Below are positions 3,507 through 46,485 of a DNA stretch of 60,346 nucleotides, one piece after another. The notes beneath the pieces are model-generated. The model was given only the letters and a program-made list of their open reading frames with translations, did no database searches and had not been told where the DNA came from. Positions within the stretch are counted from its first letter, which is position 1, and each line of letters begins with the position of its first letter. Made by a program: the position numbers and the translations under genes. Source of the stretch: a virus (Duplodnaviria > Heunggongvirae > Uroviricota > Caudoviricetes); the IMG/VR virus record IMGVR_UViG_3300045988_141393; one strand, written 5' to 3'.

Positions 3507-3874
3507 TGACCATCTCTGTTTTAGACCGCCTGAAATTAGGTAAAGAGCTATCAGATCTAATGCAGGCGCAGAAAACTGCGCCAGTATTGCAACGCGTCAC
3601 CATTGGTAAGCAGATTGTTGATGTGATGCTGAAATTGGGCCTGGGGACTGCCGCGCAACCGGCAGCGGAACCGCAACAACAGGCTGATCCTGTTGTAGAT
3701 GAAGTCCCTAAGATAGTGACTGACTTCCTGGGCGGTGTGTTCACAAAGTCCACACAAATGGAATTTATTGATGCGCTGCGTGGGATCTCAAACTATGTTG
3801 GCGAGTTCCTTACGTTGGAGCAGGCTAAAGAGCAGACCATAAGCTGGGTGAAAGCTAACGGTTATGCCGGGTAA
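3506..3874 (+). CDS. Small protein, DdrA-like position
   Basis: 122 aa, ATGA-type overlap with upstream stop; followed by hairpin. Confidence 0.3.
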   Translation: MTISVLDRLKLGKELSDLMQAQKTAPVLQRVTIGKQIVDVMLKLGLGTAAQPAAEPQQQADPVVDEVPKIVTDFLGGVFTKSTQMEFIDALRGISNYVGEFLTLEQAKEQTISWVKANGYAG

Positions 3875-3876
3875 TC

Positions 3877-3903
3877 AAAAGGGGCTGAAATGCCCCTTTC
3901 ACT
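3877..3903 (+). terminator. Hairpin terminator-like element
   Basis: AAAAGGGGC-tgaaat-GCCCCTTT stem-loop directly after CDS end. Confidence 0.35.
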
Positions 3904-3956
3904 TATCTGTTCTCACATAAATCACACACTTTTTACACTCACAGCTTTCTCTATAG

Positions 3957-5354
3957 TTGGAGTGTATTTTGAACAAATCAGTTACTTCTGCGCTTTCCGA
4001 GGCCGCAGATATTAACAGCGTCATTGCTCTGGTTTCTTCATTAGAGAGGAAAGAAACACGCCTGGGGCGAAGTAGCTACGTAGTCACCAGCAAAGGTGCA
4101 GAGGTAAAGACGGCTTTTAAGGTCGTTGACGCCAGCAGTCTGATCATTTCGAACAACCTTGACGGTGCGATTAACCCGGCCTTCCCGGAAGAACTCCAAC
4201 CACGAGATCGTACCCGGCTATCCAGCAAACTCCAGGTTAACCGTATTGCCTCCAATTTACGCCCGGCACAATTAACGGATTCCGGTATGAGCAGCCACGG
4301 AGCGCCTATAGTTGGTCCGGACAACGTTGTTGAATCCGGCAACGGAAGGAGTATGGGTATCTGGCGTGCCTATGAGCAAGGACAGGCGGATGAGTATCGC
4401 CAGTACCTGATCGACCATGCGAAAGAGTTTGGTCTGAATCCTGACGAAATTTCGCAAATGTCTATGCCCGTACTGGTGCGAGAAAGACTCACAGATGTAG
4501 ACCGCGCTCAATTTGCCCGCGATTCAAACATTAGTGATCTGCAAGAGATGGCAGCAAGTGAAAAAGCGTATGCGGATGCGCAATTTCTCACTGAGAGCGT
4601 CATGGCGCTATTTAATCCTTCAGATGATGGAAATCTGCTGGCGCGGTCCAATGATGCGTTTATTCGTGCGTTTTTGCGCGAAATTGGCGATACAGCGATG
4701 GCAGGCTTGCTTACTGCCGATGGGCGTCCCACGAAACAGCTTATCGATCGCATCCAGAATGCAATTTTTGCCAAAGCGTACAAGGATGAAAGGCTTGTTC
4801 GGCTGGTGTCGGAAGAGCCAGATCCGGAAATGCGTAATATCCTGACCGCATTAAATACGGCAGCCAGCGATTTTGCGCAAATGCAGTCGCTGTCTGGCGA
4901 CGCTCACCATGACGCAGTAACAGGCTTAGTGGACGGTATAGAGCAGGTTAATGGCCTGGATACACAGGCGATAGCAGCACTCCAGGAAGCAATTAATCTT
5001 GTTCGTGAAGCCAAAGACAACGGTCAGGCCGTTGAAGAAGTGATCGCCCAAAGGGGGTTATTCGGCGACAGTACACCGGAAGCTGAGGCATTGGCGCTAT
5101 TCATCGTAGCAAATAATCGCAGTGCGAAGCGTATGGGGGCAGCATTCAAAAAAATGGCGCAAAAAATCAACGACGAGCTGACTCATAAACAACAGGCATT
5201 GGGCGATATGTTCGGCGGTGGCGATGTTGATCTGCGTCGTATTTTGTCTGCTGTATCTGATGAAATTGAGGGTGAATTTGGCGAAGGGAAAGGTCTGAAC
5301 TTTGCTATGTTTGAAAATTCTACAGATCTAAATAATTGCCGTACGGAAAACTAA
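3957..5354 (+). CDS. Hypothetical protein (465 aa; start may be TTG 3969)
   Basis: Long ORF, uniform coding character, GGAG upstream of 3969. Confidence 0.35.
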   Translation: MECILNKSVTSALSEAADINSVIALVSSLERKETRLGRSSYVVTSKGAEVKTAFKVVDASSLIISNNLDGAINPAFPEELQPRDRTRLSSKLQVNRIASNLRPAQLTDSGMSSHGAPIVGPDNVVESGNGRSMGIWRAYEQGQADEYRQYLIDHAKEFGLNPDEISQMSMPVLVRERLTDVDRAQFARDSNISDLQEMAASEKAYADAQFLTESVMALFNPSDDGNLLARSNDAFIRAFLREIGDTAMAGLLTADGRPTKQLIDRIQNAIFAKAYKDERLVRLVSEEPDPEMRNILTALNTAASDFAQMQSLSGDAHHDAVTGLVDGIEQVNGLDTQAIAALQEAINLVREAKDNGQAVEEVIAQRGLFGDSTPEAEALALFIVANNRSAKRMGAAFKKMAQKINDELTHKQQALGDMFGGGDVDLRRILSAVSDEIEGEFGEGKGLNFAMFENSTDLNNCRTEN

Positions 5355-35144: not shown

Positions 35145-36228
35145 GAGCAATATTTATAAAGATCCGCGCTGGCTGTCGCTGGTGGAGAAATATAAAGACA
35201 ATTGGGTACTGGCAGCAAAAGAATTGTTTGATATTGATTTAAGCCACCAGCAACAACAAATTGTTGAAGCTATACAGCCCAACAATGCAAAAGCTACTGT
35301 CACCACTCCGTATGGGATCGGACGACCGCAAGTGCTTGCTGTTATTAGTACCCTTTATACGATTATGTATCCTGATTCCCGGACAGTAATTGTTTATCCA
35401 AAATCAAATGCTTGCAAAAGAGGAATTGTTGCATATGTGTGGCAATGTTGGGAGGCATTACTGAAAAAACAACCTTTTATCATTGAGTATTTTAAGGTCG
35501 GTGATAGCGGTCTGATGTTCAATGAATTTTGGGGAATGTGCTTTTGTAACTACCGCCTTAACTATGAAGATAGCATTGCAGGTCACTACGCCGACCATCT
35601 TTTATTCATTATTGTGGATTCCGCACATATCAGCGATCGGGCATACAGCATTGTGTGGGCAAGCATGACTAGTGGTGATTCACGCATATTGCTCACTTCA
35701 ATTCCGTCACCAGAGGAAATAGGCTTTTTTTATGATTCACATCATGGACGTGCTTTAGCTGAAGATAATACGAGTGGTGTATATAAAGCCATTAAGCTGA
35801 GTGCGGAGGATTCACCATTTATTACCCAAGAATATCTTGATCATTTTGCCGAAAGGTATGGCGGGCGAAATAGTGATGACTATCGTCGTATGATTCTTGG
35901 TGAGTTCCCTGGTATTAGGGAGGCTGTTCTTGAATCAGATATGCCGAAGACAATGCGCTTTTCGATGCCTGATGGTAGTGAATGGACAATGCCATTACGA
36001 GTGATAGCCCGGCATCATGCGCAGCACCACGCCAAAAAACATGGCGTCACGACATTAGAATGGTTGAAATCGCACACTATTCCACTCTTCACTGCAGATC
36101 ACAATGCTATCGTTGAGTGGGCAAAAACAATTCCGTGGGAGCATGTCGCTGAATATGCTCACATGCTAAAACCGCCGAAAGACAGGCACGAAATTAGCTG
36201 GCTGACAGCCGAAAAAATCATTGAATGA
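35134..36228 (+). CDS. Terminase-large-subunit paralogue with degenerate ATPase motifs
   Basis: 364 aa from ATG 35134; shares DPRW, SHQQQQI, FYDSHH, SPF-T, YGGR, LG-FP blocks with 28315..29823 but Walker A is TPYGIGRPQ and Walker B is LLFIIVDSAH; no nuclease-like C-terminus. Confidence 0.45.
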   Translation: MATKSNIYKDPRWLSLVEKYKDNWVLAAKELFDIDLSHQQQQIVEAIQPNNAKATVTTPYGIGRPQVLAVISTLYTIMYPDSRTVIVYPKSNACKRGIVAYVWQCWEALLKKQPFIIEYFKVGDSGLMFNEFWGMCFCNYRLNYEDSIAGHYADHLLFIIVDSAHISDRAYSIVWASMTSGDSRILLTSIPSPEEIGFFYDSHHGRALAEDNTSGVYKAIKLSAEDSPFITQEYLDHFAERYGGRNSDDYRRMILGEFPGIREAVLESDMPKTMRFSMPDGSEWTMPLRVIARHHAQHHAKKHGVTTLEWLKSHTIPLFTADHNAIVEWAKTIPWEHVAEYAHMLKPPKDRHEISWLTAEKIIE

Positions 36229-36235
36229 TATCAAC

Positions 36236-36266
36236 AAAAAGCCCGCCTGGTCTGGCGGGCTTCTTT
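36236..36266. terminator. Bidirectional terminator between convergent genes
   Basis: AAGCCCGCC-tggtc-TGGCGGGCTT followed by T-rich run. Confidence 0.5.
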
Positions 36267-36273
36267 ATGCGCC

Positions 36274-36663
36274 TTAAATCACAGGTCTATAATCAAACTC
36301 CCCACTTCGGGCATCATTGATGACATGAGTGATCACACCAAAAACAGCATTACTGCCCGTGTATCCATCGTCATCTACTGGTAACGCCTCTTTCTTCCCG
36401 GTGCTTAAATCCTCCAGGTGCTGGCGCGGATACTTCCTGTATCTCTTTATGCGATATTCACCCTCCATAGCGCATATAAGCAGTGAACCATCAACCGGAG
36501 TAAGTGAGGAATCAACCACCAGCAAAGCACCTTGCAATATTCCCTCACGGTGATGGCTGTCTGCCGCCCGCATGAAGTAGGTCGCGGAAGGATGTCTGAT
36601 TAGTTGCTGATCAAGAGAAATGCGGCTCTCTGCATAATCCGCCGCAGGAGAAGGGAAGCCCAT
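36274..36663 (-). CDS. humD: UmuD'-like protein (HumD-like, pre-truncated UmuD homologue)
   Basis: 129 aa starting MGFPSPAADY...; aligns to UmuD from residue about 24 onward; LexA box directly upstream. Confidence 0.7.
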   Translation of the reverse strand: MGFPSPAADYAESRISLDQQLIRHPSATYFMRAADSHHREGILQGALLVVDSSLTPVDGSLLICAMEGEYRIKRYRKYPRQHLEDLSTGKKEALPVDDDGYTGSNAVFGVITHVINDARSGEFDYRPVI

Positions 36664-36681
36664 AGCGTTTTACCTCAATGA

Positions 36682-36701
36682 TACTGTTTATTCATACAGT
36701 A
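36682..36701. promoter_or_regulatory. LexA (SOS) box
   Basis: TACTGTTTATTCATACAGTA = CTGT-N8-ACAG, 19 bp upstream of humD-like start. Confidence 0.6.
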
Positions 36702-36786
36702 TACATTGAAAAGGCATAGTTTGTGAAAGCGGGGTTTGTAGGCGCGCCACGCTGGGGGCTAATCACATTTCTCCCCCATCTTGCCG

Positions 36787-37038
36787 TTATTTTTTTGGTG
36801 CATCCTCGTTCTGATACACCGGATCGCTCCCTTTTGGCAACTGGAGGCTTAACTGCCGGTAGTGCCGTAGCCGTTCCATGAAATAGGCGCGCAGGTTTTC
36901 CGGTTGCTCACGGGCCACCTGCTCTGCAATCACAGGTATATTCAGCCGTTCTTTGTAAGCAACGCCGCTGGCGGCAAGGTCTACGTTCACCTTGTCTCGC
37001 TCTTCCTGGCTTTTAGCTGCTATATTTCGATCTGACAC
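36787..37038 (-). CDS. Hypothetical small protein
   Basis: 83 aa ORF upstream of humD-like gene. Confidence 0.35.
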
Positions 37039-37070
37039 AAGAAACCTCCCGGAGTTAGTGGATCAGGCAC

Positions 37071-37421
37071 ATGCACAATAACGTTCTCAATGTTAGCCGT
37101 TCAATTCAGACAATCAGAGACTGCACCAGTGTGGTGGCATCAATCCCATTGCGAAATAGCATAGACGAACTGCAAATTCGGGTATTGAATCTGAATCAGG
37201 CTAACAAGCAATTGCGCTTTATTTTGACGCTGAAAAGTGAAACAGAGGGGATAAAGCACAGCGTAAAAGTGTTTTCTGAGGCCATTCTGCTTAATGGGAA
37301 GCTCCGGCATCTGGTAAGGCCAGAACGTCAATATCCTGACGTCCTGGGTCGTGAAAAATACCTTCTTTCCGAAGTTCAAGATAAGGTGATCGATTTCGTT
37401 AAATCTCATCCCCTGCATTGA
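37071..37421 (+). CDS. Hypothetical protein (strand ambiguous; antisense alternative 37140..37418)
   Basis: 116 aa ATG-initiated ORF; fully overlapped by a 92-aa antisense ORF. Confidence 0.25.
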   Translation: MHNNVLNVSRSIQTIRDCTSVVASIPLRNSIDELQIRVLNLNQANKQLRFILTLKSETEGIKHSVKVFSEAILLNGKLRHLVRPERQYPDVLGREKYLLSEVQDKVIDFVKSHPLH

Positions 37422-37460
37422 GAGCAGGTGTTCCTCTTTGTAACAAAGATGCCACCAGCA

Positions 37461-37727
37461 TTATGGTTCGCATTTCCAAATGGTGTTCTGAACGCCCGTA
37501 CCGGGCGCGAGATGGGGATTAGCGTTCGCGCTATGCTGATATACGGCTTTAGACTTCCCATATTGCTGACAGGCTTTATCTGCGGTTTTTTGCAGACTAT
37601 CCAGCCCATACCAGCCATCTGACTGGATGCTTACCTTTTCACCGTCGTTGTATTGCACCATTGCACACCCAGACACTGCCAGCATCGCACCGACAATAAC
37701 GCTTTTCCATAAAACTCTATGCAACAT
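37461..37727 (-). CDS. Small lipoprotein
   Basis: About 88 aa from ATG 37727; signal peptide with lipobox LAVSGC; GAGGGGA RBS. Confidence 0.4.
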   Translation of the reverse strand: MLHRVLWKSVIVGAMLAVSGCAMVQYNDGEKVSIQSDGWYGLDSLQKTADKACQQYGKSKAVYQHSANANPHLAPGTGVQNTIWKCEP

Positions 37728-37772
37728 ATACAAAAATCCCCTCTGTGAATTGAGGGGATTTTAGCATGGTGA

Positions 37773-38507
37773 TCAGATATCGGCTTTATTCGGAATTTTA
37801 TCAGCCACCAGCGGCAATAAAGCCTTCGCCATTTCATGAACCAACATGGCATCAATGACGCCTAGCGTATGGCCCGGCTTAATCTTTAATGCGGCCTCAA
37901 GATAGCCTCTTTCCAGAGTGGTTTTTACGCTTTTCTTGGGCGATTGTTGGGAACTATCCGGAAAATCCGGATGGTTGCCAGCCTCATAAGCTACCCGCAA
38001 CCAGTGCATGAATGTTTCAGTAGACACACAACCGCAGTCCAAGTCGATTTTTTCGCGTTGTTGCCCCAGCCATTGCTCAAAATTTAACTTATTGGATGCT
38101 TCAAGAGCCTCTTCGTATTGTTTGCGCGAAATTATTTCCGTGTATTCCTCGCGATCAAGGTTACTTATCGGAAGCCTGACCTCAAGGCAAAAATTGCGCC
38201 CACGCGGGCTTTTCGCTGGATCAGAGCCAAAAGCAAAGAAACCATATGATGGTTCACAGCAGTCCTCTCTAACCATGCGACAATCGAGCACATCATCAGG
38301 CCACCCTCCACGCTTTGGCAGCTCCTGCACCAACAAGTCAATCAGCTTTATACTCTCACCGTCTTTGCAGGTTGCTAACGCTATTTGGGCAAGCTCCAAT
38401 ACCTCATCTGCCGTGTATCCAGCGCCGTGTCCATACATTTCGATGCGTGCAATAATCTCTGATATGCGAAATTTAGTGATTTTAGTCATAGTTTTATTTC
38501 CTTGCAT
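37773..38507 (-). CDS. Hypothetical protein
   Basis: 244 aa ORF. Confidence 0.4.
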   Translation of the reverse strand: MQGNKTMTKITKFRISEIIARIEMYGHGAGYTADEVLELAQIALATCKDGESIKLIDLLVQELPKRGGWPDDVLDCRMVREDCCEPSYGFFAFGSDPAKSPRGRNFCLEVRLPISNLDREEYTEIISRKQYEEALEASNKLNFEQWLGQQREKIDLDCGCVSTETFMHWLRVAYEAGNHPDFPDSSQQSPKKSVKTTLERGYLEAALKIKPGHTLGVIDAMLVHEMAKALLPLVADKIPNKADI

Positions 38508-38695
38508 GGTTCGCCTTTACGGCATACGGCTACACGGTCATTTCTTACATTAACCACTGTCACCGTTCCGTCATCACATTGAATAACGATGAAAGGGTGT
38601 TCATTCTCTTTTGTGCAATGTTGCTGTTCTCCAGCCATTGCAGCCGGAGGAGCAAATAGCGCCAGAACAAATGCCAACCTTAAAAAATGCTTCAT
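38486..38695 (-). CDS. Small secreted Cys-containing protein
   Basis: 69 aa; N-terminal signal peptide MKHFLRLAFVLALFAPPAAMA. Confidence 0.3.
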   Translation of the reverse strand: MKHFLRLAFVLALFAPPAAMAGEQQHCTKENEHPFIVIQCDDGTVTVVNVRNDRVAVCRKGEPCKEIKL

Positions 38696-38950
38696 TTGGC
38701 CTTATCCGTTATCAAAATTGGAATATCCGTTATCACGAGCGTGATATCCGTTATGAAGTGGGGAATAAGACCACTTACCAATACCCTCCGCCTGACTCAA
38801 AGTTGGCGATAAGCCAGGCTGCGAAAAGAGTAACCCCGCTCCAAAAACCACACCCCACCGTACCCCATTTAACACCACCAGCTAATAAAATAAATAAACC
38901 GCAAAGGCATACAAACAAAAAAGTAATCCAAAATTTCTTTCTGTTTTTCA

Positions 38951-39244
38951 TTATGGTTGACTCCAGTTATCTTCAATAGCAATGCTCAATCTTTGTAACC
39001 ATTCTGCTAATTTCAGCATTGCTTCTCTTTCGCTTAAACCACACGGAAACTCATCAAGCGATATTGTTGGCTTGAAGTTTCCCAAATTATCCATTTCGAC
39101 GGTCAGATTTTGCTCCAGCACGGTATTCCTTACGCGGCTATTGTGCCGAAGCAAATATACTGAACGTGATTTATTGGTTTTGTGGTCGAGCTGATATTCG
39201 GTAAGTATCATCTGGCTTCCGCCATGATTATTACCGCGCCACAT
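38951..39244 (-). CDS. Hypothetical protein
   Basis: 97 aa ORF. Confidence 0.3.
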   Translation of the reverse strand: MWRGNNHGGSQMILTEYQLDHKTNKSRSVYLLRHNSRVRNTVLEQNLTVEMDNLGNFKPTISLDEFPCGLSEREAMLKLAEWLQRLSIAIEDNWSQP

Positions 39245-39267
39245 AATTACTCCGTGTTAATTGAAAT

Positions 39268-39549
39268 TTAGCTATTAATCTTCACTTTTATCGCGAACAC
39301 CTTTACCGGTTTATCACCGAAGTGTGGATGTGTGATTGTTTTTATTTCATATCCGTTATACGGGACGTCAATTCTGCGACTGAAGTCGTCGCGCTTCGGA
39401 TATCCCTTTGTGATAATCAGGCGGTCATATTCCCGGAACATGATTCGCTTATTCCAGTAGTCATTACACAGGCGATACTCTTCCGTTTTCTCTCCGCGAA
39501 TCATGGCATCGAAAAATTCACCTTTAACGGCAAGTTGCAGGTTAGCCAC
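39268..39549 (-). CDS. ASCH/PUA-like domain protein
   Basis: About 93 aa from GTG 39549 preceded by AGGAGG; LAVKGEFFDAMIRGEKTEEYR resembles ASCH-type small proteins. Confidence 0.4.
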   Translation of the reverse strand: MANLQLAVKGEFFDAMIRGEKTEEYRLCNDYWNKRIMFREYDRLIITKGYPKRDDFSRRIDVPYNGYEIKTITHPHFGDKPVKVFAIKVKINS

Positions 39550-40237
39550 GGTTAACCTCCTGCGGCGGTTCTGGTAGAGGCATCCAGTGTGATGGTATCC
39601 ACGACGCACCAGGAATTATCCACCCATCATTAGCGTCAGGATGCCCAGGGATGTAAGTCGCCCATTTCATTCGCCAGTCACCTTTCCTGTCAAACTCCCT
39701 GGCAACAAGAACGGCTGTTTTGCTATCCGGCATTCGCTCACTACAGCTTATCCAACCATCCGGAGTTACCGGAGAGTTGCCAGCCAGTCTACGCAAAACA
39801 GCCTTAACAGCCTCAATACGCTCATCATCGCAACTTTCTGCAGTATCTATGCGGTCGAGCATGATGATGGCGTTATCAATATCAGGATTGCCGGTCCACT
39901 CATTACCGCGATTGGATTCGGCAGCCTGGTTGCACATAATCTCAGGCGTAAGCTCTTTGTAAGCATAAGCAAGAGGCTCTGATGCATTATCCGGCACAAC
40001 CGACGCAGGCGCGGCAGCATAAACAGGAATAACGTCCGCTTGCTCTTTATTGCTTTCATCCGTTAAAGCCCAGAATAATTTCCCGGCAGGATGTTTGAAA
40101 ATATAAGCAACTGGATCTGCTTCCAGCGATGCCAGTGCAATTTCATAAGCCCGGCGTTCAATATTGTCTCGAACGTCCAGGCTGCTGATACGCTCTTTGA
40201 TTTCTTTAATCAGTTCTTTGTCGGTGAAAGTGGTCAT
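39542..40237 (-). CDS. DUF551 domain protein
   Basis: 231 aa from ATG 40237 preceded by AAGGAGAG; C-terminal signature WIPSHWMPLPEPP. Confidence 0.5.
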   Translation of the reverse strand: MTTFTDKELIKEIKERISSLDVRDNIERRAYEIALASLEADPVAYIFKHPAGKLFWALTDESNKEQADVIPVYAAAPASVVPDNASEPLAYAYKELTPEIMCNQAAESNRGNEWTGNPDIDNAIIMLDRIDTAESCDDERIEAVKAVLRRLAGNSPVTPDGWISCSERMPDSKTAVLVAREFDRKGDWRMKWATYIPGHPDANDGWIIPGASWIPSHWMPLPEPPQEVNRG

Positions 40238-40238
40238 A

Positions 40239-40427
40239 TCACTCTCCTTTAGTGCGAAAGTGGTTTTTCCAGCGGTTTTGCGCCGCGCTGGGCTTTTTGC
40301 AAAAACCACAATCCATCATCCCGTAATATTTCATCAACCCCATCCGTCGGTTGCTGAGTCTCACCCACTGCCAGACGCCAGGAGCGTTTCTACGAACTAA
40401 CAGAATCTTTGCTTTACGGTTTTTCAT
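40239..40427 (-). CDS. Small basic protein (MKNRKAK family, copy B)
   Basis: 62 aa; ATGA-coupled to upstream paralogue. Confidence 0.3.
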   Translation of the reverse strand: MKNRKAKILLVRRNAPGVWQWVRLSNRRMGLMKYYGMMDCGFCKKPSAAQNRWKNHFRTKGE

Positions 40428-40600
40428 CTTACAGCGTACCCTTTCTTCCGCCTGTTCTGTGACGCAGTAGGCTTACGCTTTGCGGCAAAAGCCACCTGAC
40501 CAAATGGATGGAGTACCGCTATCTTATGGTTGCTAATAACCAGCTCCACCACACGCACAGGTCGCTGTAAAAAAAGTCGTTTTGCCTTACGGTTTTTCAT
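40424..40600 (-). CDS. Small basic protein (MKNRKAK family, copy A); not in ORF track
   Basis: 58 aa read by eye: MKNRKAKRLFLQRPVRVVELVISNHKIAVLHPFGQVAFAAKRKPTASQNRRKKGYAVR; overlaps neighbours by ATGA. Confidence 0.3.
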   Translation of the reverse strand: MKNRKAKRLFLQRPVRVVELVISNHKIAVLHPFGQVAFAAKRKPTASQNRRKKGYAVR

Positions 40601-40773
40601 CGCTTTGCTCTCCTGCGTCTCTTTGCTGCTCGTCGTGCCGCTGCAATACCGGTATGGCGGCGCTTTGGTGCCGGGATGATGTTGTCAGCCATCAGGACAT
40701 ACGGCTTTGCAATTAGCGCAGAAGCCCAAAAACGAGTCGGGTACGGTAACAAGCCGATACATGCCACACGCAT
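40597..40773 (-). CDS. Small protein with hydrophobic N-terminus and poly-basic C-terminus; not in ORF track
   Basis: 58 aa read by eye: MRVACIGLLPYPTRFWASALIAKPYVLMADNIIPAPKRRHTGIAAARRAAKRRRRAKR; TAATG overlap with upstream gene. Confidence 0.25.
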   Translation of the reverse strand: MRVACIGLLPYPTRFWASALIAKPYVLMADNIIPAPKRRHTGIAAARRAAKRRRRAKR

Positions 40774-41408
40774 TACTCACCTCCTTTGATGCGAATGCCT
40801 GCGGCGCGGATTGCATCGATGACTTCAGAAACTTTGTATGCCATTACCGTTTGGTAATCATCGTTAAAATCTGTTCGATGAAGCATACTGCTACGTTCCG
40901 GGAGCAGTATTTCCCGCGCTTCCAGTTCTGCTATGCGCTTCTCTGCGGATTCCAGCGCCGCAACCAATTCGTCTACATTTCCGGCAGCTTGCAGTGCGTA
41001 ATCGGTAATAGCCATCTCATGATCAATTTCAGTACCGTTCTCATTCGTTGAGGTGATAGCAAAATAATCAGAGTCGATTTCGTTATCAGCTAAGTGGCGT
41101 AGCGTATCGGCAACAAGCCGGCCGTTTTCGATTAGCAGCTTCCCTACCGTTAGAGCAATATCCTCGTTCTCCTGGTCGCGGCGTTTTATGTATTGCAGGT
41201 TTCTTTCCCGTTCATCCAGTAGTGCCAGCACGGTTTCTGGTCCGGCCAGAAATTTGAAGGCGTTGAGCGCATCAATATCCACACCGTAATCTTTAAGTTC
41301 CTGTTCACTTAACAAATCATCATCAGCTGGCAACATTAACAGGCGTTCCATTGCTGGAATTGCACGTTCCGCCGCCTCACGCAGTGCCTGGTAATTAATT
41401 TTGCTCAC
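40773..41408 (-). CDS. Ead/Ea22-like prophage protein (tentative)
   Basis: 211 aa acidic protein of the kind found in lambdoid early regions. Confidence 0.35.
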   Translation of the reverse strand: MSKINYQALREAAERAIPAMERLLMLPADDDLLSEQELKDYGVDIDALNAFKFLAGPETVLALLDERERNLQYIKRRDQENEDIALTVGKLLIENGRLVADTLRHLADNEIDSDYFAITSTNENGTEIDHEMAITDYALQAAGNVDELVAALESAEKRIAELEAREILLPERSSMLHRTDFNDDYQTVMAYKVSEVIDAIRAAGIRIKGGE

Positions 41409-41694
41409 TGGTTGCCTCCGCTTTCCACGTTTTCAGACTTTCACCACAGAACGGGCAAAATGAAACCCGAATCGGCGATTTAGAAAACTCGCCTGACCGA
41501 AGCATGATCAGATCTTGTGAATGAATTAATTCATGGTTATAGATTTTGTATTTCAGCAGACCTTTTCGCGTCGTGTATTCAGCATCCTGCTCCAGAGATT
41601 GCGCCAGCGCCGCGCACGGTTCTATTTTTCTGTCATTAATCAAACAAGTGGAGATTCTGCACTTTGCAGCTCCGTCACCGTTACCTTGACTCAT
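41395..41694 (-). CDS. Small zinc-ribbon-like protein
   Basis: 99 aa; Cys pairs C..C ... CPFCG. Confidence 0.35.
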   Translation of the reverse strand: MSQGNGDGAAKCRISTCLINDRKIEPCAALAQSLEQDAEYTTRKGLLKYKIYNHELIHSQDLIMLRSGEFSKSPIRVSFCPFCGESLKTWKAEATSEQN

Positions 41695-41707
41695 TGCGTT
41701 GTTTCCA

Positions 41708-42703
41708 TCAGTTATTGAACGTGATCACTCCGCGCTCAATGGCGAAGTCGAAAAGCTGGTTAGCGGCTACGTAAAGGCGGATGCCATGTGCTTTTTCCCA
41801 TGCCCGGACATCGTTTTCTGCGCTTCTGGCGCAGTCATCGCAAAGAGGAACAGCCCAGCGGTCGTGTTCGTTTAACGAGCGGGCGCGGTACATGAATGGG
41901 TGGTTAACTTTGCCACCGCATCCGATGCACGGACGAGAAACCACAAACCGGAGATAAGCCGGGCTTTTACCGAGGACCGCTTTTGGTCGGCGCATATAAA
42001 GCAGGCCGGAATCCTCATCTACAGACAGGTTGACGATCTGCTCTGCGGTTATGTCCACCAGCTCGCGGGTACTGTGCTCCCAGGTGATATCTGATTCTTT
42101 CAGCGTACCGGTAGGGATTTCAGTTTTTGGCTGACAAAATGCAATGCGACCGGCTTCATCTGGCAGCTCATCTTTCAGATTCCGGCGAATGGCCCAAAAA
42201 GTGAGTTCAACCATGCTCAGATCGCGTTCTGGCGGTAGTTTTAACTCGCTCGCAGCCCAGTTCATAACCCAGTTGGCACGATTCAGGGATAACTGGTCGT
42301 CCAGCTTGCTGTACCCCTTCATCATGTATTCCGCATCATGCTTCCAGCACAGGCGAACGGCAGAGCCGTTATAGAAATGAGTGGTTAGCTGGTGGCTGCA
42401 ATCGCGCTTATCGTGCGCCTGGCAATCGTGGATATTGGAACTTACCCAATGAACAAGCGAATCTTCACCGCCCAACGCGTTAAATACGCGCTCGCTTTGA
42501 AAAAACGGTTTCAGGGACTGGTTGGCAACCAGCGAATAATTCAGATCCACTACGCCATCTGGCGTGTTTTCAGCCTGTTCACGCGGAAGTGGGGAGATAA
42601 TGAAACGGCGACCTACGCCAATGTAGTTACTGGTGGGCTTGTCTACCGGAAAGACAGCCACACCAGCTCCGTTTACGAAATGAGGTGTGATTATTGCACT
42701 CAT
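41708..42703 (-). CDS. DUF968-like protein with C-terminal Cys/His cluster (HNH-like)
   Basis: 331 aa; CIGCGG ... H ... C..C cluster near C-terminus. Confidence 0.4.
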   Translation of the reverse strand: MSAIITPHFVNGAGVAVFPVDKPTSNYIGVGRRFIISPLPREQAENTPDGVVDLNYSLVANQSLKPFFQSERVFNALGGEDSLVHWVSSNIHDCQAHDKRDCSHQLTTHFYNGSAVRLCWKHDAEYMMKGYSKLDDQLSLNRANWVMNWAASELKLPPERDLSMVELTFWAIRRNLKDELPDEAGRIAFCQPKTEIPTGTLKESDITWEHSTRELVDITAEQIVNLSVDEDSGLLYMRRPKAVLGKSPAYLRFVVSRPCIGCGGKVNHPFMYRARSLNEHDRWAVPLCDDCARSAENDVRAWEKAHGIRLYVAANQLFDFAIERGVITFNN

Positions 42704-42745
42704 AATGTATACCGACTCTGTTTTGTTCCGAGCGGTAAAATAATA

Positions 42746-42776
42746 TGTTAGAAAACTAAAATCAATGTTCTAACAC
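42746..42776. promoter_or_regulatory. Inverted pair of recurrent motif (candidate operator) upstream of DUF968 gene
   Basis: tgttagaaaa (42746..42755) and tgttctaaca (42767..42776). Confidence 0.4.
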
Positions 42777-42800
42777 ATTTTGAGTGCGTAAATGATTTGA

Positions 42801-43493
42801 TCAGACTTTAAGCTGTCCTCCCTTCACCTGCATTAGCGTCAGGTTTCCGCAAAATACGGCACCAGTGTCGATATACTGCTGATTCCAGAATGTCTTCGGG
42901 CTTTTCACCGGAGTGTGACCAAAGATAAAACGATCTGCGCCCGAAATTTCGCCACCAATATCATCCATCGAATCACTGATACGCTCGCGCGCCCAGACAA
43001 CGTTGAAAAGCGGCACCTCCTTACCGAATTGGTATTCATTATCCGGATAGTCGGCATGGGCTATAACGATAGTTTCATTCCCGGTGTTCAGCTCAATGAT
43101 ATAGGGCAGACGTCTTACCAGCTCCACCAGCGCCCTGGCTAATATTTCCCGATCAGCGTCCAGCATGAAGAACCATTGACCGCCATTCATTAGCCAGTTA
43201 TTCACATTGCCTGCGGGACTTAACGCATCGATCATTAATCGCTCGTGGTTTCCCATAACCGACCGAAACCAGGGCATCTGCAATAGCTCCAGGCATTCAA
43301 CATTTTCGGCGCCGCGATCGATAAGGTCGCCAACCGATATCAGTAAATCCTGTGTCGGGTCAAAATCCACACGATGGAGTTCATTCATAAGTAGGGTGTA
43401 GCAACCGTGCAAATCACCAACAACCCATATGTTTCTGTAGCCTGAACCATCAATACGGCTATATAAATTCACTTCATGCAGAGCCTGGATCAT
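42801..43493 (-). CDS. Ser/Thr protein phosphatase (lambda PPase-type metallophosphoesterase)
   Basis: 230 aa from ATG 43493; motifs GDLHG, GDLIDRG, GNHE. Confidence 0.65.
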
Positions 43494-43801
43494 GCGGCAA
43501 CCTTCTCCCGCAGCCAGATACAAACTGGACCATCTTCAGTGTCATGAATAGAGCCAACAAACCAGCCTTCACCCTCTGGTCGCTCCGGTTCCCAGGCGGC
43601 AATATCGGGACCAGCTGCGTCCAGATCAAAATCATCTTCATCCATACTGCGAATAGTCCACTGAAGATTATTTTCCTTCATCCAGGCGTCAAATTCCTCA
43701 GTGGATATATATTCACGACCTGCGCAAAACTTTTCATACTCCGGATGTGTCCAGCAGCCATATTCATCACGTTCTACCGGCATTTCTTTAATGATGCTCA
43801 C
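43490..43801 (-). CDS. Hypothetical protein
   Basis: 103 aa; ATGA overlap with downstream phosphatase gene. Confidence 0.35.
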
Positions 43802-44022
43802 TCTTCATCCTCCAAGTCGGCAACGGCATCCATCACATCCGAACCGCGAATAACCTCAAAAGCACGGCAGGCCATTTCAAACACCTGTTGTTCTTGCGGA
43901 TGCGGTGACTCCCAATACTTAAAACCAGGTCGATGCTCGTAACCCATCATGGAATAAAAATCGCCAGCAAGTTCAATCGCGGCATCAACAAGTTCGCGAT
44001 TTGTCATCGTCTGTTCTGTCAT
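43798..44022 (-). CDS. Hypothetical protein
   Basis: 74 aa ORF in overlapping gene chain. Confidence 0.3.
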   Translation of the reverse strand: MTEQTMTNRELVDAAIELAGDFYSMMGYEHRPGFKYWESPHPQEQQVFEMACRAFEVIRGSDVMDAVADLEDEE

Positions 44023-44294
44023 TTGGTTTTCTCCTGTCTGAACATCACTATCATCAGGTCGCCTTTTGTCGCTATCCTCGCTGTTGTGCCTGGTTCAATG
44101 CGGCTAAGTTCAAATGCGTCATAGAACGCTTCTAATGCCTTCTGGCGTAGTTCCTGTTTGCGCCGTTTTTTCCACTGTTTTAGGAAAATGGAACCCAGCC
44201 ATCGCCATGTGCGGGACATGATGTAAAGCCAACCGAGAAGTGCCAGACCGGAATTTAGGAGCGTATCGATCGTTATTGTCGTGTCGATATTCAC
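44019..44294 (-). CDS. Small membrane protein
   Basis: 91 aa with hydrophobic helix. Confidence 0.3.
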   Translation of the reverse strand: MNIDTTITIDTLLNSGLALLGWLYIMSRTWRWLGSIFLKQWKKRRKQELRQKALEAFYDAFELSRIEPGTTARIATKGDLMIVMFRQEKTK

Positions 44295-44707
44295 TTGCTG
44301 ATTCCTCTTCGAAGCTCATCGGCAAAGTCAGTTGCATGTTCACCGAGTAGTTTCCAGTTATCGCGTATATCAGATGCAAGCGACTGTTCGGATTTTGAGT
44401 TACATTTCTGTGCAAACATCTCCAATCCCTGCGCCCGGACTTCAGCCAGGAAAGCGTCGGTGGCTGGCGTTTCGATATCGTTAATTTCAGGAAGAATCTC
44501 TTCCCATGTGGCGATATCGCCATTCAAATGCCATCCGGCAATTCCACTGGAGTTATCCGCAACACTGCGAACGGCTTCAATAGTTTCATGCATTGCCGCA
44601 TTCTCCGCCGCCAGCGCCGCGCGCTCTTTCTCAAGTCGGGAAATTTCCGTTACATACTCAGCGTTACGCTCTGCCAGTTGTGCGGGCGTTAAACCTTCAG
44701 ACTTCAT
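44291..44707 (-). CDS. Hypothetical protein
   Basis: 138 aa ORF. Confidence 0.35.
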   Translation of the reverse strand: MKSEGLTPAQLAERNAEYVTEISRLEKERAALAAENAAMHETIEAVRSVADNSSGIAGWHLNGDIATWEEILPEINDIETPATDAFLAEVRAQGLEMFAQKCNSKSEQSLASDIRDNWKLLGEHATDFADELRRGISK

Positions 44708-45014
44708 TCACTCTCCTTTCGAAATAAACGTACTGATTAATCATTCCCAGGGGCATTTCGAGTTTTTCTGCGATCTCACGGCGGGGAACACCACACTGAT
44801 GAAGCTGCCGCGCCAGTTCTATATCGCTCTGCCGGTATTTGGCTGACTGGTGAAAGTCTCCTTTCAGAATCATGCTGATCCGCAGTTGCCGCGCTTTAGT
44901 CCTGACTGCGCCACCGGTACGTCCGATCAGTCTCCCAATAGTCTCGACTGTCATAGTCCCGGCGCACTGGCGGAGTATCATGATTTCCGCCCTTCCCCAT
45001 CCCCGCCAGCTCAC
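44697..45014 (-). CDS. Small HTH-containing protein
   Basis: 105 aa; HTH-like segment VPRREIAEKLEMPLGMINQYV. Confidence 0.35.
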   Translation of the reverse strand: MSWRGWGRAEIMILRQCAGTMTVETIGRLIGRTGGAVRTKARQLRISMILKGDFHQSAKYRQSDIELARQLHQCGVPRREIAEKLEMPLGMINQYVYFERRVNEV

Positions 45015-45634
45015 GCCGACATCCTCTGAGACATAAACTCCACAAAACGAACTGCATCTTCAGAAACAACGCCGCATGACTTCAGATAATTCATTGCGTC
45101 ATTAGGTAGCGGATTAGTTGGTTCGGCATTTGCCAGGGATTGAGATAAACGCGTGATTAATTTGACCATTCTCCGCTGTCGGAGGTTGTATCCTTCGGCT
45201 AAAGACAGGTAACTGGAAAGGGTATTGCTTAAGCGAGCGCGAAGCTGATCCGTGCCGTGACATTCAATAGCAACATCACGTAACGCATCGACCAGTTCGC
45301 GGTAAATATGCGCTGCCATTCTGCAATCTGTGTCAGATGGCGCTTCATAAATTACCGTCAGCTCCAGTTTTTCAGCCAGGGCGTGTTCTGCTCGTGCTCC
45401 TGCGGACGCTTCCCAGCCCTTAAGCAGATAGATAGCATCAGCAGAACGCACCATTGCCAGGCAAATATCCATGTATTCACTCTGACAAAGGCCACCAGGT
45501 AACACAGCTGGATTCAGAACGATATGCCCTTCAGCCATCAGCTCGCTCGCTTTCGCATTAAACGCCGCACGGTTGTAATCTGGATAACCAGTCATCGGCC
45601 CCGCGATGTAAATTTTCAAAACTCGTTTCACCAT
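45011..45634 (-). CDS. DUF4406 (nucleoside 2-deoxyribosyltransferase-like) domain protein
   Basis: 207 aa from ATG 45634; KIYIAGPMTGYPDYNRAAF ... AIYLLKGWEASAGARAEHALA. Confidence 0.5.
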   Translation of the reverse strand: MVKRVLKIYIAGPMTGYPDYNRAAFNAKASELMAEGHIVLNPAVLPGGLCQSEYMDICLAMVRSADAIYLLKGWEASAGARAEHALAEKLELTVIYEAPSDTDCRMAAHIYRELVDALRDVAIECHGTDQLRARLSNTLSSYLSLAEGYNLRQRRMVKLITRLSQSLANAEPTNPLPNDAMNYLKSCGVVSEDAVRFVEFMSQRMSA

Positions 45635-45789
45635 CAAAATTTCCCCAGAATCGTGACGCAAAACATAAGCACTGCGAAAAGCTCAATACCAAGCTCAAGT
45701 AGCGCCAACGCCCCGAAAAACAACACATAGAACAGGCCAATCTCATTCACAGATGGCTGGTGGATCGCACTTAAAGCTATAAGCATCAT
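45634..45789 (-). CDS. Small hydrophobic membrane peptide; not in ORF track
   Basis: 51 aa read by eye (MMLIALSAIHQ...VLMFCVTILGKF), GGAGGA RBS, stop overlaps start of DUF4406 gene. Confidence 0.3.
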   Translation of the reverse strand: MMLIALSAIHQPSVNEIGLFYVLFFGALALLELGIELFAVLMFCVTILGKF

Positions 45790-45828
45790 GTCCTCCAAAC
45801 ATTTATCAGTGATGATATTAATGTTTTG

Positions 45829-45838
45829 TGTTAGAAAA
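45829..45838. promoter_or_regulatory. Recurrent TGTTAGAAA motif upstream of ref-like gene
   Basis: tgttagaaaa about 70 bp upstream of 45907. Confidence 0.4.
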
Positions 45839-45906
45839 TCAATTTTGAATATCTAACTGTTTTGATCAATCATAGAAAAATCGTTGAAAAGTAAGAGACT
45901 GCCATC

Positions 45907-46485
45907 ATGCAGAAACAGAGTTATTGGGAGAAACAGAGACAAAAAGCCATGCAAAAATTGGCTGACCCGGCCTGGCGAGAGGAACAAAGGGCAAAGCGCC
46001 TTCAACAAGCTCAACGCCAGCAGCAGCGAGCGAGAGAAAAAGCCGCATCGCCTGAATATCGGCAAAAGAAAATTGAAAAAGCAAAGCAATATGAACAGCG
46101 GAGAAAAGATAAAGCTGTATCCGCTCCGCCCAAGAAAACACGCACGTCACGCGGCCTGAAAGGCAGATCACTCACAGCCGATGAACGCCGGATACAGACC
46201 GCTATCGGTACTCTCCCCTGCATTGCCTGCCATATTCACGGGCAACATAGCCCAGTGGTATCCCTGCACCATATCTTCGGGAGAACGGCAGAGAACGCGC
46301 ATAAATATGTCCTCCCTTTGTGTAAATGGCACCACCAGTACGCAGCGCCAGCCGAGGTCCGAGAACAATATCCCTGGCTGGTCCCGGTTCATGCTGACGG
46401 AAAAATAGGCGGAAAAGCAGATTTCATGCGGCACAATGCCGATGAAATGGCGTTGTATCAGATGGCGATTGAATTGATAAATTAG
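45907..46485 (+). CDS. ref: Ref-like HNH endonuclease (recombination enhancement function family)
   Basis: 192 aa; basic low-complexity N-terminus followed by HNH core CIACHIHGQH ... HHIFG ... CKWHH. Confidence 0.6.
   Translation: MQKQSYWEKQRQKAMQKLADPAWREEQRAKRLQQAQRQQQRAREKAASPEYRQKKIEKAKQYEQRRKDKAVSAPPKKTRTSRGLKGRSLTADERRIQTAIGTLPCIACHIHGQHSPVVSLHHIFGRTAENAHKYVLPLCKWHHQYAAPAEVREQYPWLVPVHADGKIGGKADFMRHNADEMALYQMAIELIN

Follow-up and report, generated by a model that had tools for sequence, protein, structure and literature searches.

Three short open reading frames, ORF1, ORF2 and ORF3, fill the space between an Ead/Ea22-like gene and a DUF551 gene in a Caudoviricetes genome. Are such small, overlapping frames genes at all and, if they are, how are they related to each other and what do their products do? 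The window, that is the whole stretch of DNA analysed here (IMG/VR record IMGVR_UViG_3300045988_141393), has 60,346 nucleotides, and ORF1-ORF3 belong in it to a run of same-strand genes, one long operon (Table 1). An earlier note, made from the sequence alone, had reported the three minus-strand frames, the TAATG and ATGA links between them and the identity of both flanking genes. Positions, lengths, sequences and links of the frames could all be read directly from the DNA, the overlaps turned out to be kept in every locus examined, and the flanking genes were confirmed by Pfam profiles.

Table 1. Positions of the three ORFs, their neighbours and their junctions in the window
Feature	Position	Strand	Length	Description
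ORF1	40597..40773	minus	58 aa	phrog_13831 member
ORF2	40424..40600	minus	58 aa	K family, upstream-position subtype of phrog_1380
ORF3	40239..40427	minus	62 aa	K family, main subtype of phrog_1380
Ead/Ea22-like gene (upstream neighbour, same operon)	40773..41408	minus	211 aa	PF13935, E 9e-26
DUF551 gene (downstream neighbour)	39542..40237	minus	231 aa from ATG at 40237	PF04448, E 1.1e-20
Ea22-like/ORF1 junction	40771..40786	minus		Shine-Dalgarno AAGGAGGTG (40786..40778), then TAATG, in which the Ea22-like stop TAA (40775..40773) and the ORF1 ATG (40773..40771) have one base in common
ORF1/ORF2 junction	40597..40600	minus		ATGA: ORF2 start and ORF1 stop
ORF2/ORF3 junction	40424..40427	minus		ATGA: ORF3 start and ORF2 stop; weak Shine-Dalgarno
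ORF3/DUF551 junction	40235..40249	minus		Shine-Dalgarno AAGGAG (40249..40244), ORF3 stop TGA (40241..40239), one spacer base, DUF551 ATG (40237..40235)

The element that carries these frames is recognizable from its closest relatives. A 10-kb slice around the ORFs is best matched by non-mobilizable E. coli plasmids of 89-93 kb (86% coverage, 95% identity); phage D6 (57%) and RCS47, which is P1-like, come next. The window thus represents a D6/P1-like phage-plasmid of E. coli. An equivalent block of small genes adjoins ea22 in the Shiga-toxin (Stx) phages 933W and VT2-Sakai, in phiV10, TL-2011b and others, and the 801-nt region with these genes finds a match in 1792 of 5426 complete E. coli genomes, about a third of them.

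The products of all three frames are as strongly basic as had been claimed, with net charges of +14 (ORF1), +15 (ORF2) and +14 (ORF3) and isoelectric points of 11.3-12 (12.0 for ORF1). ORF2 starts with MKNRKAKRLFLQRP and has the layout MKNRKAK...ISNHK...ASQNRRKKGYAVR; ORF3 starts with MKNRKAKILLVRRN and reads MKNRKAK...LSNRR...KPSAAQNRWKNHFRTKGE. ORF1 is built differently: it begins with MRVACIGLLPYPTRFW, its N-terminal half is moderately hydrophobic and proline-rich, and it ends with the arginine-rich tail AAARRAAKRRRRAKR, 11 of the C-terminal 19 residues being Arg or Lys. The hydrophobic N-terminus ascribed to ORF1 in the earlier note therefore exists in a moderate form, without making a clear membrane protein of it. 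The best 19-residue Kyte-Doolittle means are 1.24 for ORF1, 0.96 for ORF2 and 0.21 for ORF3, and none of these qualifies as a membrane span. We consider it improbable that ORF1 is a small membrane-associated protein with its N-terminal half in or on the inner membrane and its basic tail on the cytoplasmic side. Aliphatic and aromatic residues abound in the first 36 positions, and a positively charged tail fits the positive-inside rule; however, a value of about 1.6 is usual for a transmembrane helix, the hydrophobic segment is broken by Pro, Arg and Lys, AlphaFold2 (AF2) places no confident helix there, and the sole PDB match of ORF1 is a light-harvesting alpha chain with E 1.3.

Each of the three reading frames is under purifying selection. 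Homologous DNA for this analysis came from 80 viral contigs, ten annotated phages and assembly contigs. In the family of ORF2 and ORF3, called here the K family, pS exceeds pN in all informative pairs among 16 diverse copies. The K genes of phages Sasha and HK225 give pS 0.95 and pN 0.25 in the annotated frame, in contrast to pS 0.30-0.36 and pN 0.41-0.42 after a shift of the codon alignment by one base or two. ORF2 compared with the HEMP4 copy gives pS 0.71 and pN 0.24, and it is separated from the TL-2011b copy by four synonymous changes and one non-synonymous change. For each invariant residue of the family, 2-5 different synonymous codons are in use (AGC, AGT and TCA for Ser27, five each for Arg29 and Arg30, four for Gly38), so that conservation of the K family acts at the level of protein and not of DNA.

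The same signature was obtained for ORF1. Its divergent pairs have pS 0.44-0.59 and pN 0.11-0.26 in the annotated frame only, and the excess of substitutions falls on the third codon position. Between the ORF1 copy of the window and copy L101, 7, 8 and 20 substitutions occupy the first, second and third codon positions, with pS 0.44 and pN 0.12 in frame against pS 0.13-0.16 and pN 0.21-0.22 in the shifted frames. The 933W-type copy has lost seven codons (21 nt) in frame, and in other copies the start is swapped from ATG to GTG, the same base change turning the upstream stop TAA into TAG.

ORF1, ORF2 and ORF3 are thus very probably real genes. The opposite reading takes them for chance frames or recently spread DNA and sees the real Stx-phage gene in the 155-aa VT2-Sap08 frame (phrog_12350). 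It draws on existing annotation, in which other frames were chosen (933W L0068, VT2-Sap08) or one or two of the three ORFs were skipped in RefSeq records. This reading is hardly credible: the coding signature is confined to the ORF1 and K frames, and the frame extending ORF3 upstream has pS equal to or below pN and is closed by stops in the window. Recent spread is ruled out because homologues have diverged to 50-60% amino acid identity with saturated synonymous sites. The VT2-Sap08 frame, which is one of the shifted frames devoid of coding signal, is best explained as an ORF3 that was extended too far.

Small ORFs that are often skipped or mis-framed are thereby provided with clean gene evidence, and a number of annotations become correctable: 933W L0068, VT2-Sap08 and the RefSeq records in which one or two of the three genes are missing. 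RM12581 lacks ORF2, RCS47 lacks ORF1 and ORF3, TL-2011b has ORF2 only, and the original 933W record is without ORF1 and ORF3. The genes had been described as missed by the ORF track of the window, which holds insofar as two of the three fall below a 60-aa cut-off; each of them is nevertheless annotated in some public record. ORF2 appears in RCS47 as YP_009624945.1, which is, like WP_000797279.1 and WP_001261538.1, a RefSeq entry named "hypothetical protein". In NCBI and UniRef the products are called hypothetical, uncharacterised or prophage proteins. The exact ORF1 and ORF2 proteins are each present on at least 1000 public contigs; the exact ORF3 protein is found on 60, and a one-residue variant of it on at least 1000.

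The three genes fall into two families. ORF1 matches the phrog_13831 HMM over its whole length (E 1.1e-41, residues 1-58 on profile positions 1-58) and forms a family separate from that of ORF2 and ORF3. Both of the latter match phrog_1380, ORF3 with E 2.1e-40 (residues 1-62 on profile positions 1-62) and ORF2 with E 6.5e-23 (residues 1-58 on profile positions 1-60). Besides the common start MKNRKAK, 54 of their residues can be aligned with 37% identity (E 5e-10). ORF2 and ORF3 are therefore true but ancient paralogues. Their description as tandem duplicates is borne out for an old duplication and fails for a recent one: pS between the two genes is 0.72 (pN 0.44), which puts synonymous sites near saturation and marks the duplication as old, and the ORF2 and ORF3 types each form a conserved sub-lineage of their own. 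The window proteins are direct members of phrog_1380 and phrog_13831, from which they do not differ materially. This membership is silent on mechanism, as neither family carries a functional annotation. The closest annotated counterpart of the whole set is gp49/gp50/gp51 of phiV10, where an ORF1 gene and two K genes follow in the same order and the record notes the resemblance of p50 and p51. The genes already figure in public catalogues, are nothing unusual in the accessory region of a phage, and do not amount to a new kind of system.

The K family is narrow: at E <= 0.001, no more than 47 representative clusters came out of an exhaustive profile search of 1.84 billion proteins. A scan of species-representative genomes returned a single 228-bp contig. 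Relatives of the window genes are frequent among Stx and lambdoid phages and in some lytic phages of enterobacteria. Comparison with relatives and a tblastn search against phage genomes, both proposed in the earlier note, revealed frames kept from Stx phages to lytic phages of Salmonella and E. coli: ORF3 matches 146 phage records, among them lytic Sashavirus, Nonanavirus and Vequintavirinae phages, and the homologues in Sasha, D6, HK225 and Av-05 are 50-60% identical to it. Sasha and AVIO78A, both lytic, have K genes behind ParB-like genes, HK225 has them in its nin region, and they are also present in Av-05, a member of the Vequintavirinae.

Conservation within K proteins is concentrated in three motifs: N-terminal NRKAK, central (R/K)(V/I)SN(R/H)(R/K) and C-terminal SAAQNRWKNH. 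In the form NRKAK, SN(R/H)(R/K) and (A/S)QNR(W/R)K they are common to distant members of phrog_1380, and all three are present in both ORF2 and ORF3. A partitioned analysis gave pN 0.01-0.14 against pS 0.45-1.0 for the motifs; the linkers between them, variable in both length and sequence, have pN 0.30-0.55 and a pN/pS ratio of about 0.4-1, close to neutral. The C-terminal tail depends on what follows it: it ends ...KKGYAVR* before another K gene and ...RTKGE* before other genes, and the codons of the latter ending spell the AAGGAG Shine-Dalgarno sequence of the next gene. With Shine-Dalgarno sequences embedded in tail codons, part of the conservation of the ends is due to the signals at the junctions.

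Such tails could suggest that translation alone matters, with the three frames acting as a relay that takes over ribosomes at the Ea22-like gene, leads them to DUF551 and keeps the mRNA covered, while the peptides themselves are functionless. Downstream Shine-Dalgarno sequences in upstream tail codons, tails that track the type of the downstream junction, nearly unconstrained linkers and frameshifted variants (P0128, P0042, P0045) all agree with a relay. We consider it quite improbable even so, since the three motifs hold their low pN despite saturated synonymous sites and varied codons, and since they are kept in the unrelated contexts of Sasha, AVIO78A, HK225 and Av-05. Moreover, many loci are without ORF1 or ORF2, so that a fixed relay is not required.

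The genuine genes that we favour instead have a layout that suggests coupling. The four junctions are TAATG, ATGA, ATGA and TGAnATG, and no sigma-70-like promoter was found in a scan of positions 39000..42000, in which terminator-like sites occurred at chance level only; Rfam gave no match at E <= 1 in 38000..43000. The ORF2 Shine-Dalgarno sequence AGGAG lies within the codons of the basic tail of ORF1, and that of DUF551 is encoded by the C-terminal codons of ORF3 (TKGE). A longer, GTG-initiated DUF551 ORF reaches 40309 and overlaps ORF3; it is probably not the true start, and the ATG at 40237 has its Shine-Dalgarno sequence upstream. Calculated energies of pairing between Shine-Dalgarno and anti-Shine-Dalgarno sequences are -12.9 kcal/mol for ORF1, -7.4 for ORF2, -4.5 for ORF3 and -9.1 for DUF551.

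A survey of architectures in 84 loci revealed several arrangements, always with the 4-base overlap: ORF1-ORF2-ORF3; ORF1-ORF3; ORF1 started by GTG or truncated at its N-terminus, followed by one or more K genes; and ORF3 directly after Ea22, as in D6. The 4-base overlap of ORF1 and ORF2 is found in all loci with this pair, about 40 loci that have both ORF2 and ORF3 retain the overlap of these two, and the Ea22-like/ORF1 junction GGAGGTG(A/C)GTA(A/G)TG is kept in most relatives. An intact K gene directly follows ORF1 in all five loci retrieved through ORF1, and K genes often occur without ORF1. In phage operons, stop codons often overlap starts in this way, and by themselves such overlaps do not prove coupling. 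The weak Shine-Dalgarno sequence of ORF3, combined with its conserved ATGA, makes termination-reinitiation plausible, and the arrangement of start, stop and Shine-Dalgarno signals points to coupled translation of ORF1-ORF3 as likely. A predicted RNA hairpin over the ORF1 start (-22.9 kcal/mol, z -2.15 in the window) was considered and dismissed, as it is not conserved in divergent relatives.

In Stx phages, ea22 is followed by a variable set of early genes transcribed from pL (PMC8614690). The number and kind of genes in this exo-xis block vary between lambda, 933W and Phi24B, and duplications are present (PMC8614690). Candidate protein partners of early accessory-region products have come from yeast two-hybrid assays, and an influence on the lysis-lysogeny decision is reported for Orf63, Orf61, Ea8.5 and Ea22 (PMC8614690). 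In phages 933W and VT2-Sakai the genes described here adjoin ea22, in a block with a reported effect on the induction of prophages. The lambdoid exo-xis proteins (lambda Ea8.5, Orf63, Orf61, Orf60a and Orf73) occupy the same niche, beside ea22 in the early leftward operon, and are, with about 55-95 residues, of a size similar to that of ORF1-ORF3. No sequence relation between the two sets was found in PDB and Pfam profile searches, however, and the exo-xis small proteins reside in lambdoid prophages, whereas the block in the window resides in a P1/D6-like phage-plasmid. The exo-xis literature, including PMC8614690, does not name or discuss ORF1-ORF3; likewise, a literature search by sequence or locus tag brought no mention of them, and their peptides are not among the entries of the Sakai RIBO-seq supplements.

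On these grounds we propose that ORF1-ORF3 are genuine, separately evolving genes of an accessory early block of the 'ea / exo-xis' type, common to lambdoid and Stx phages and carried here by a D6/P1-like E. coli phage-plasmid. Coupled translation would produce their proteins and would matter most for ORF3, whose own Shine-Dalgarno sequence is weak. The basic motifs would then most likely bind a polyanion, either RNA or DNA or an acidic surface of a host protein, in early modulation of the host; polyanion binding is what a net charge of +14 to +15 in about 60 residues suggests. Genuine early accessory genes, coupled translation and polyanion binding together are the best explanation as a whole, and we hold this combination to be somewhat more probable than its failure.

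Which polyanion is meant is a separate matter. Nucleic-acid binding, to which amino acid composition points, may be the actual activity, and we offer it as a tentative possibility that we would not presume. Support for it did not come from Pfam, NCBIfam, PADLOC, PDB profile, fold or literature searches: Pfam and NCBIfam gave no meaningful match, PADLOC defence-system HMMs no match to ORF1, ORF2 or ORF3 at E <= 1, profile searches of PDB with alignments A2, A4 and A5 nothing significant, and fold searches with the AF2 models no credible match. The models themselves are of low confidence (pLDDT 66.8 and 62.9), and hydrophobic periodicity gives the centre of the K family a beta-like character, contradicting the central helix of AF2 and suggesting a beta-hairpin plus a helix as the alternative. 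A match of zf-C2H2_jaz to ORF3 (E 0.11) was rejected, as the Cys and His involved are not conserved in the family.

The same searches bear on the rival reading that the proteins would target a host or phage protein as early host-modulating inhibitors, with the three motifs serving as short linear binding motifs. Short conserved motifs connected by fast-evolving linkers of variable length are typically seen where proteins are bound through such motifs, profile and fold searches detected no domain for nucleic-acid binding, and the location in an early accessory region is shared with the products that are reported to affect lysis-lysogeny. A net charge of +14 or +15 in about 60 residues is, on the other hand, beyond that of most protein-protein inhibitors, and we judge this reading rather unlikely.

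Polyanion binding, the reading we prefer, can be set against known basic proteins. K proteins share with homeodomain and Myb/SANT domains a length of about 60 residues and an N-terminal basic arm, and QNRWKNH(L) recalls recognition helices; the homeodomain 'WFQNRR' and the Myb 'RWHNHL' are motifs of such helices. Both assignments were tried and abandoned. For the homeodomain, hhalign gave 0.35% against Antennapedia, and PF00046 had no match at E <= 10 in 17 members. For Myb/SANT, hhalign gave 11.6% against c-Myb R2R3 with only the six-residue RWxNH motif aligned, and Pfam Myb_DNA-bind_6 matched one of 17 members weakly (E 0.0057), below its curated threshold. Homeodomain and Myb/SANT are, furthermore, three-helix domains, in contrast to the beta-like centre of the K family, and fold searches gave no structural match.

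ORF1 can be compared with the arginine-rich-motif (ARM) peptides that bind RNA, examples of which are the N-terminal parts of lambda N and HK022 Nun. The ORF1 tail is predicted to form a basic helix (residues 40-57, pLDDT about 70) and resembles these peptides in composition only; like them, ORF1 comes from a phage early operon. Unlike them, ORF1 has no antiterminator context, and its tail is acidic in a widespread frameshift variant. The variant, which has an acidic sequence in place of the basic tail, is indexed in 106 assembly-collection blocks, so that resident prophages, at least, can do without the basic tail.

A more specific version of the proposal would see in the K family a miniature nucleic-acid binder that presents three Asn-Arg basic motifs on a fast-evolving scaffold, perhaps as a hetero-pair of ORF2 and ORF3 acting together with the arginine-rich helix of ORF1, and that modulates early expression or the lysis-lysogeny decision and induction. 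We regard it as unlikely and speculative; if it were true, such a binder would be of a previously undescribed kind, set in Stx phages and E. coli phage-plasmids. Whatever the target, the K family is an uncharacterised but well-defined family of Stx phages, and its defined motifs make it tractable for experiments.

Some minor observations concern unusual forms of K genes and of their start. Tandem ORF2-ORF2 arrays, hinted at by orphan ORF2 contigs of 228-240 bp in draft assemblies, are found in none of the 5,426 complete E. coli genomes. Fusions of the K domain were considered as a clue to function and rejected, as the longer proteins (P0174 and others) have no second known domain; most of them look like products of deletion or frameshift. 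Finally, an ORF of the window at 38775..38951 begins with MKNRKK, a coincidence, because its start uses different codons and continues into a hydrophobic protein.

The window is a D6/P1-like phage-plasmid in which a lambdoid-type 'ea' accessory block (within 36000..46000) encodes a DUF968/HNH-like protein, Ead_Ea22, the three small ORFs, DUF551 and an ASCH-like protein. The same small-gene cassette thus occurs not only in phage-plasmids but also in some lytic phages and in integrated prophages of the Stx/lambdoid type. Its annotation in public records is inconsistent: a different subset of ORF1-ORF3 is called in each of RCS47, RM12581, TL-2011b and 933W, and in RM12581 a small gene downstream is marked as frameshifted by PGAP.

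Some gene calls are over-extended (see table). The Stx phage gene VT2-Sap08 is best read as ORF3 with an over-extended start; the 93 codons at its N-terminus cross ORF1 in a frame without a coding signature. The longest-ORF extension of the DUF551 gene, beginning at GTG 40309, would share the 3' third of ORF3, read in a different frame, while ATG 40237 is preceded by AAGGAG and is the likelier start. Over-extension of the same kind explains the annotations 933W L0068 and VT2-Sap07.

Alternative gene calls around the cassette and further small ORFs of the operon
Feature	Location	Strand	Remarks
VT2-Sap08, 155 aa	VT2-Sakai 3762..4229; also in 933W		basis of phrog_12350
DUF551 longest-ORF extension	window 40237..40309	-	GTG start at 40309
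Small ORF, 58 aa	window 38775..38951	-	very hydrophobic, starts MKNRKK; same operon, downstream of ORF1-ORF3
Small ORF, 69 aa	window 38486..38695	-	signal-peptide-like N-terminus; same operon, downstream of ORF1-ORF3

The resemblance between the MKNRKK start of the first of the two downstream ORFs and that of the K family (ORF2, ORF3 and relatives) is coincidental, because the codons differ. In the database protein P0153, a K-type N-terminus is fused to the C-terminal half of the second downstream protein, a fusion that probably arose by deletion.

Frameshifts are found in relatives of both ORF1 and ORF3. In the ORF1 variant P0128 (loci L099 and L100; also P0123 and P0124), a 1-nt deletion converts the basic tail to ...HRHDEQQRNAGEQNDEKP and creates a 14-nt overlap with the start of the K-family gene; this variant is indexed in 106 blocks of the assembly collection, complete chromosomes among them. 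The ORF3 relatives P0042 and P0045, each known from single Logan contigs, are double frameshifts, in which the middle of ORF3 is read in an alternative frame (…AVGETQQPTDGV…DDGLWF…), corresponding to the 39-aa frame at 40249..40368 of the window, and the normal frame is resumed before KPSAAQNRWKNH.

ORF2 also occurs on orphan contigs, represented by a 228-bp contig (L103) of an 'Acinetobacter idrijaensis' draft and by cluster P0046. They are made up of a single ORF2 unit of 174 bp, with its initial 54 nt duplicated as the final 54 nt of the contig, as expected of a collapsed tandem ORF2 array or of a graph cycle. No ORF2-to-ORF2 junction was found in 5,426 complete E. coli genomes. The Acinetobacter label of the 228-bp contig probably reflects contamination.
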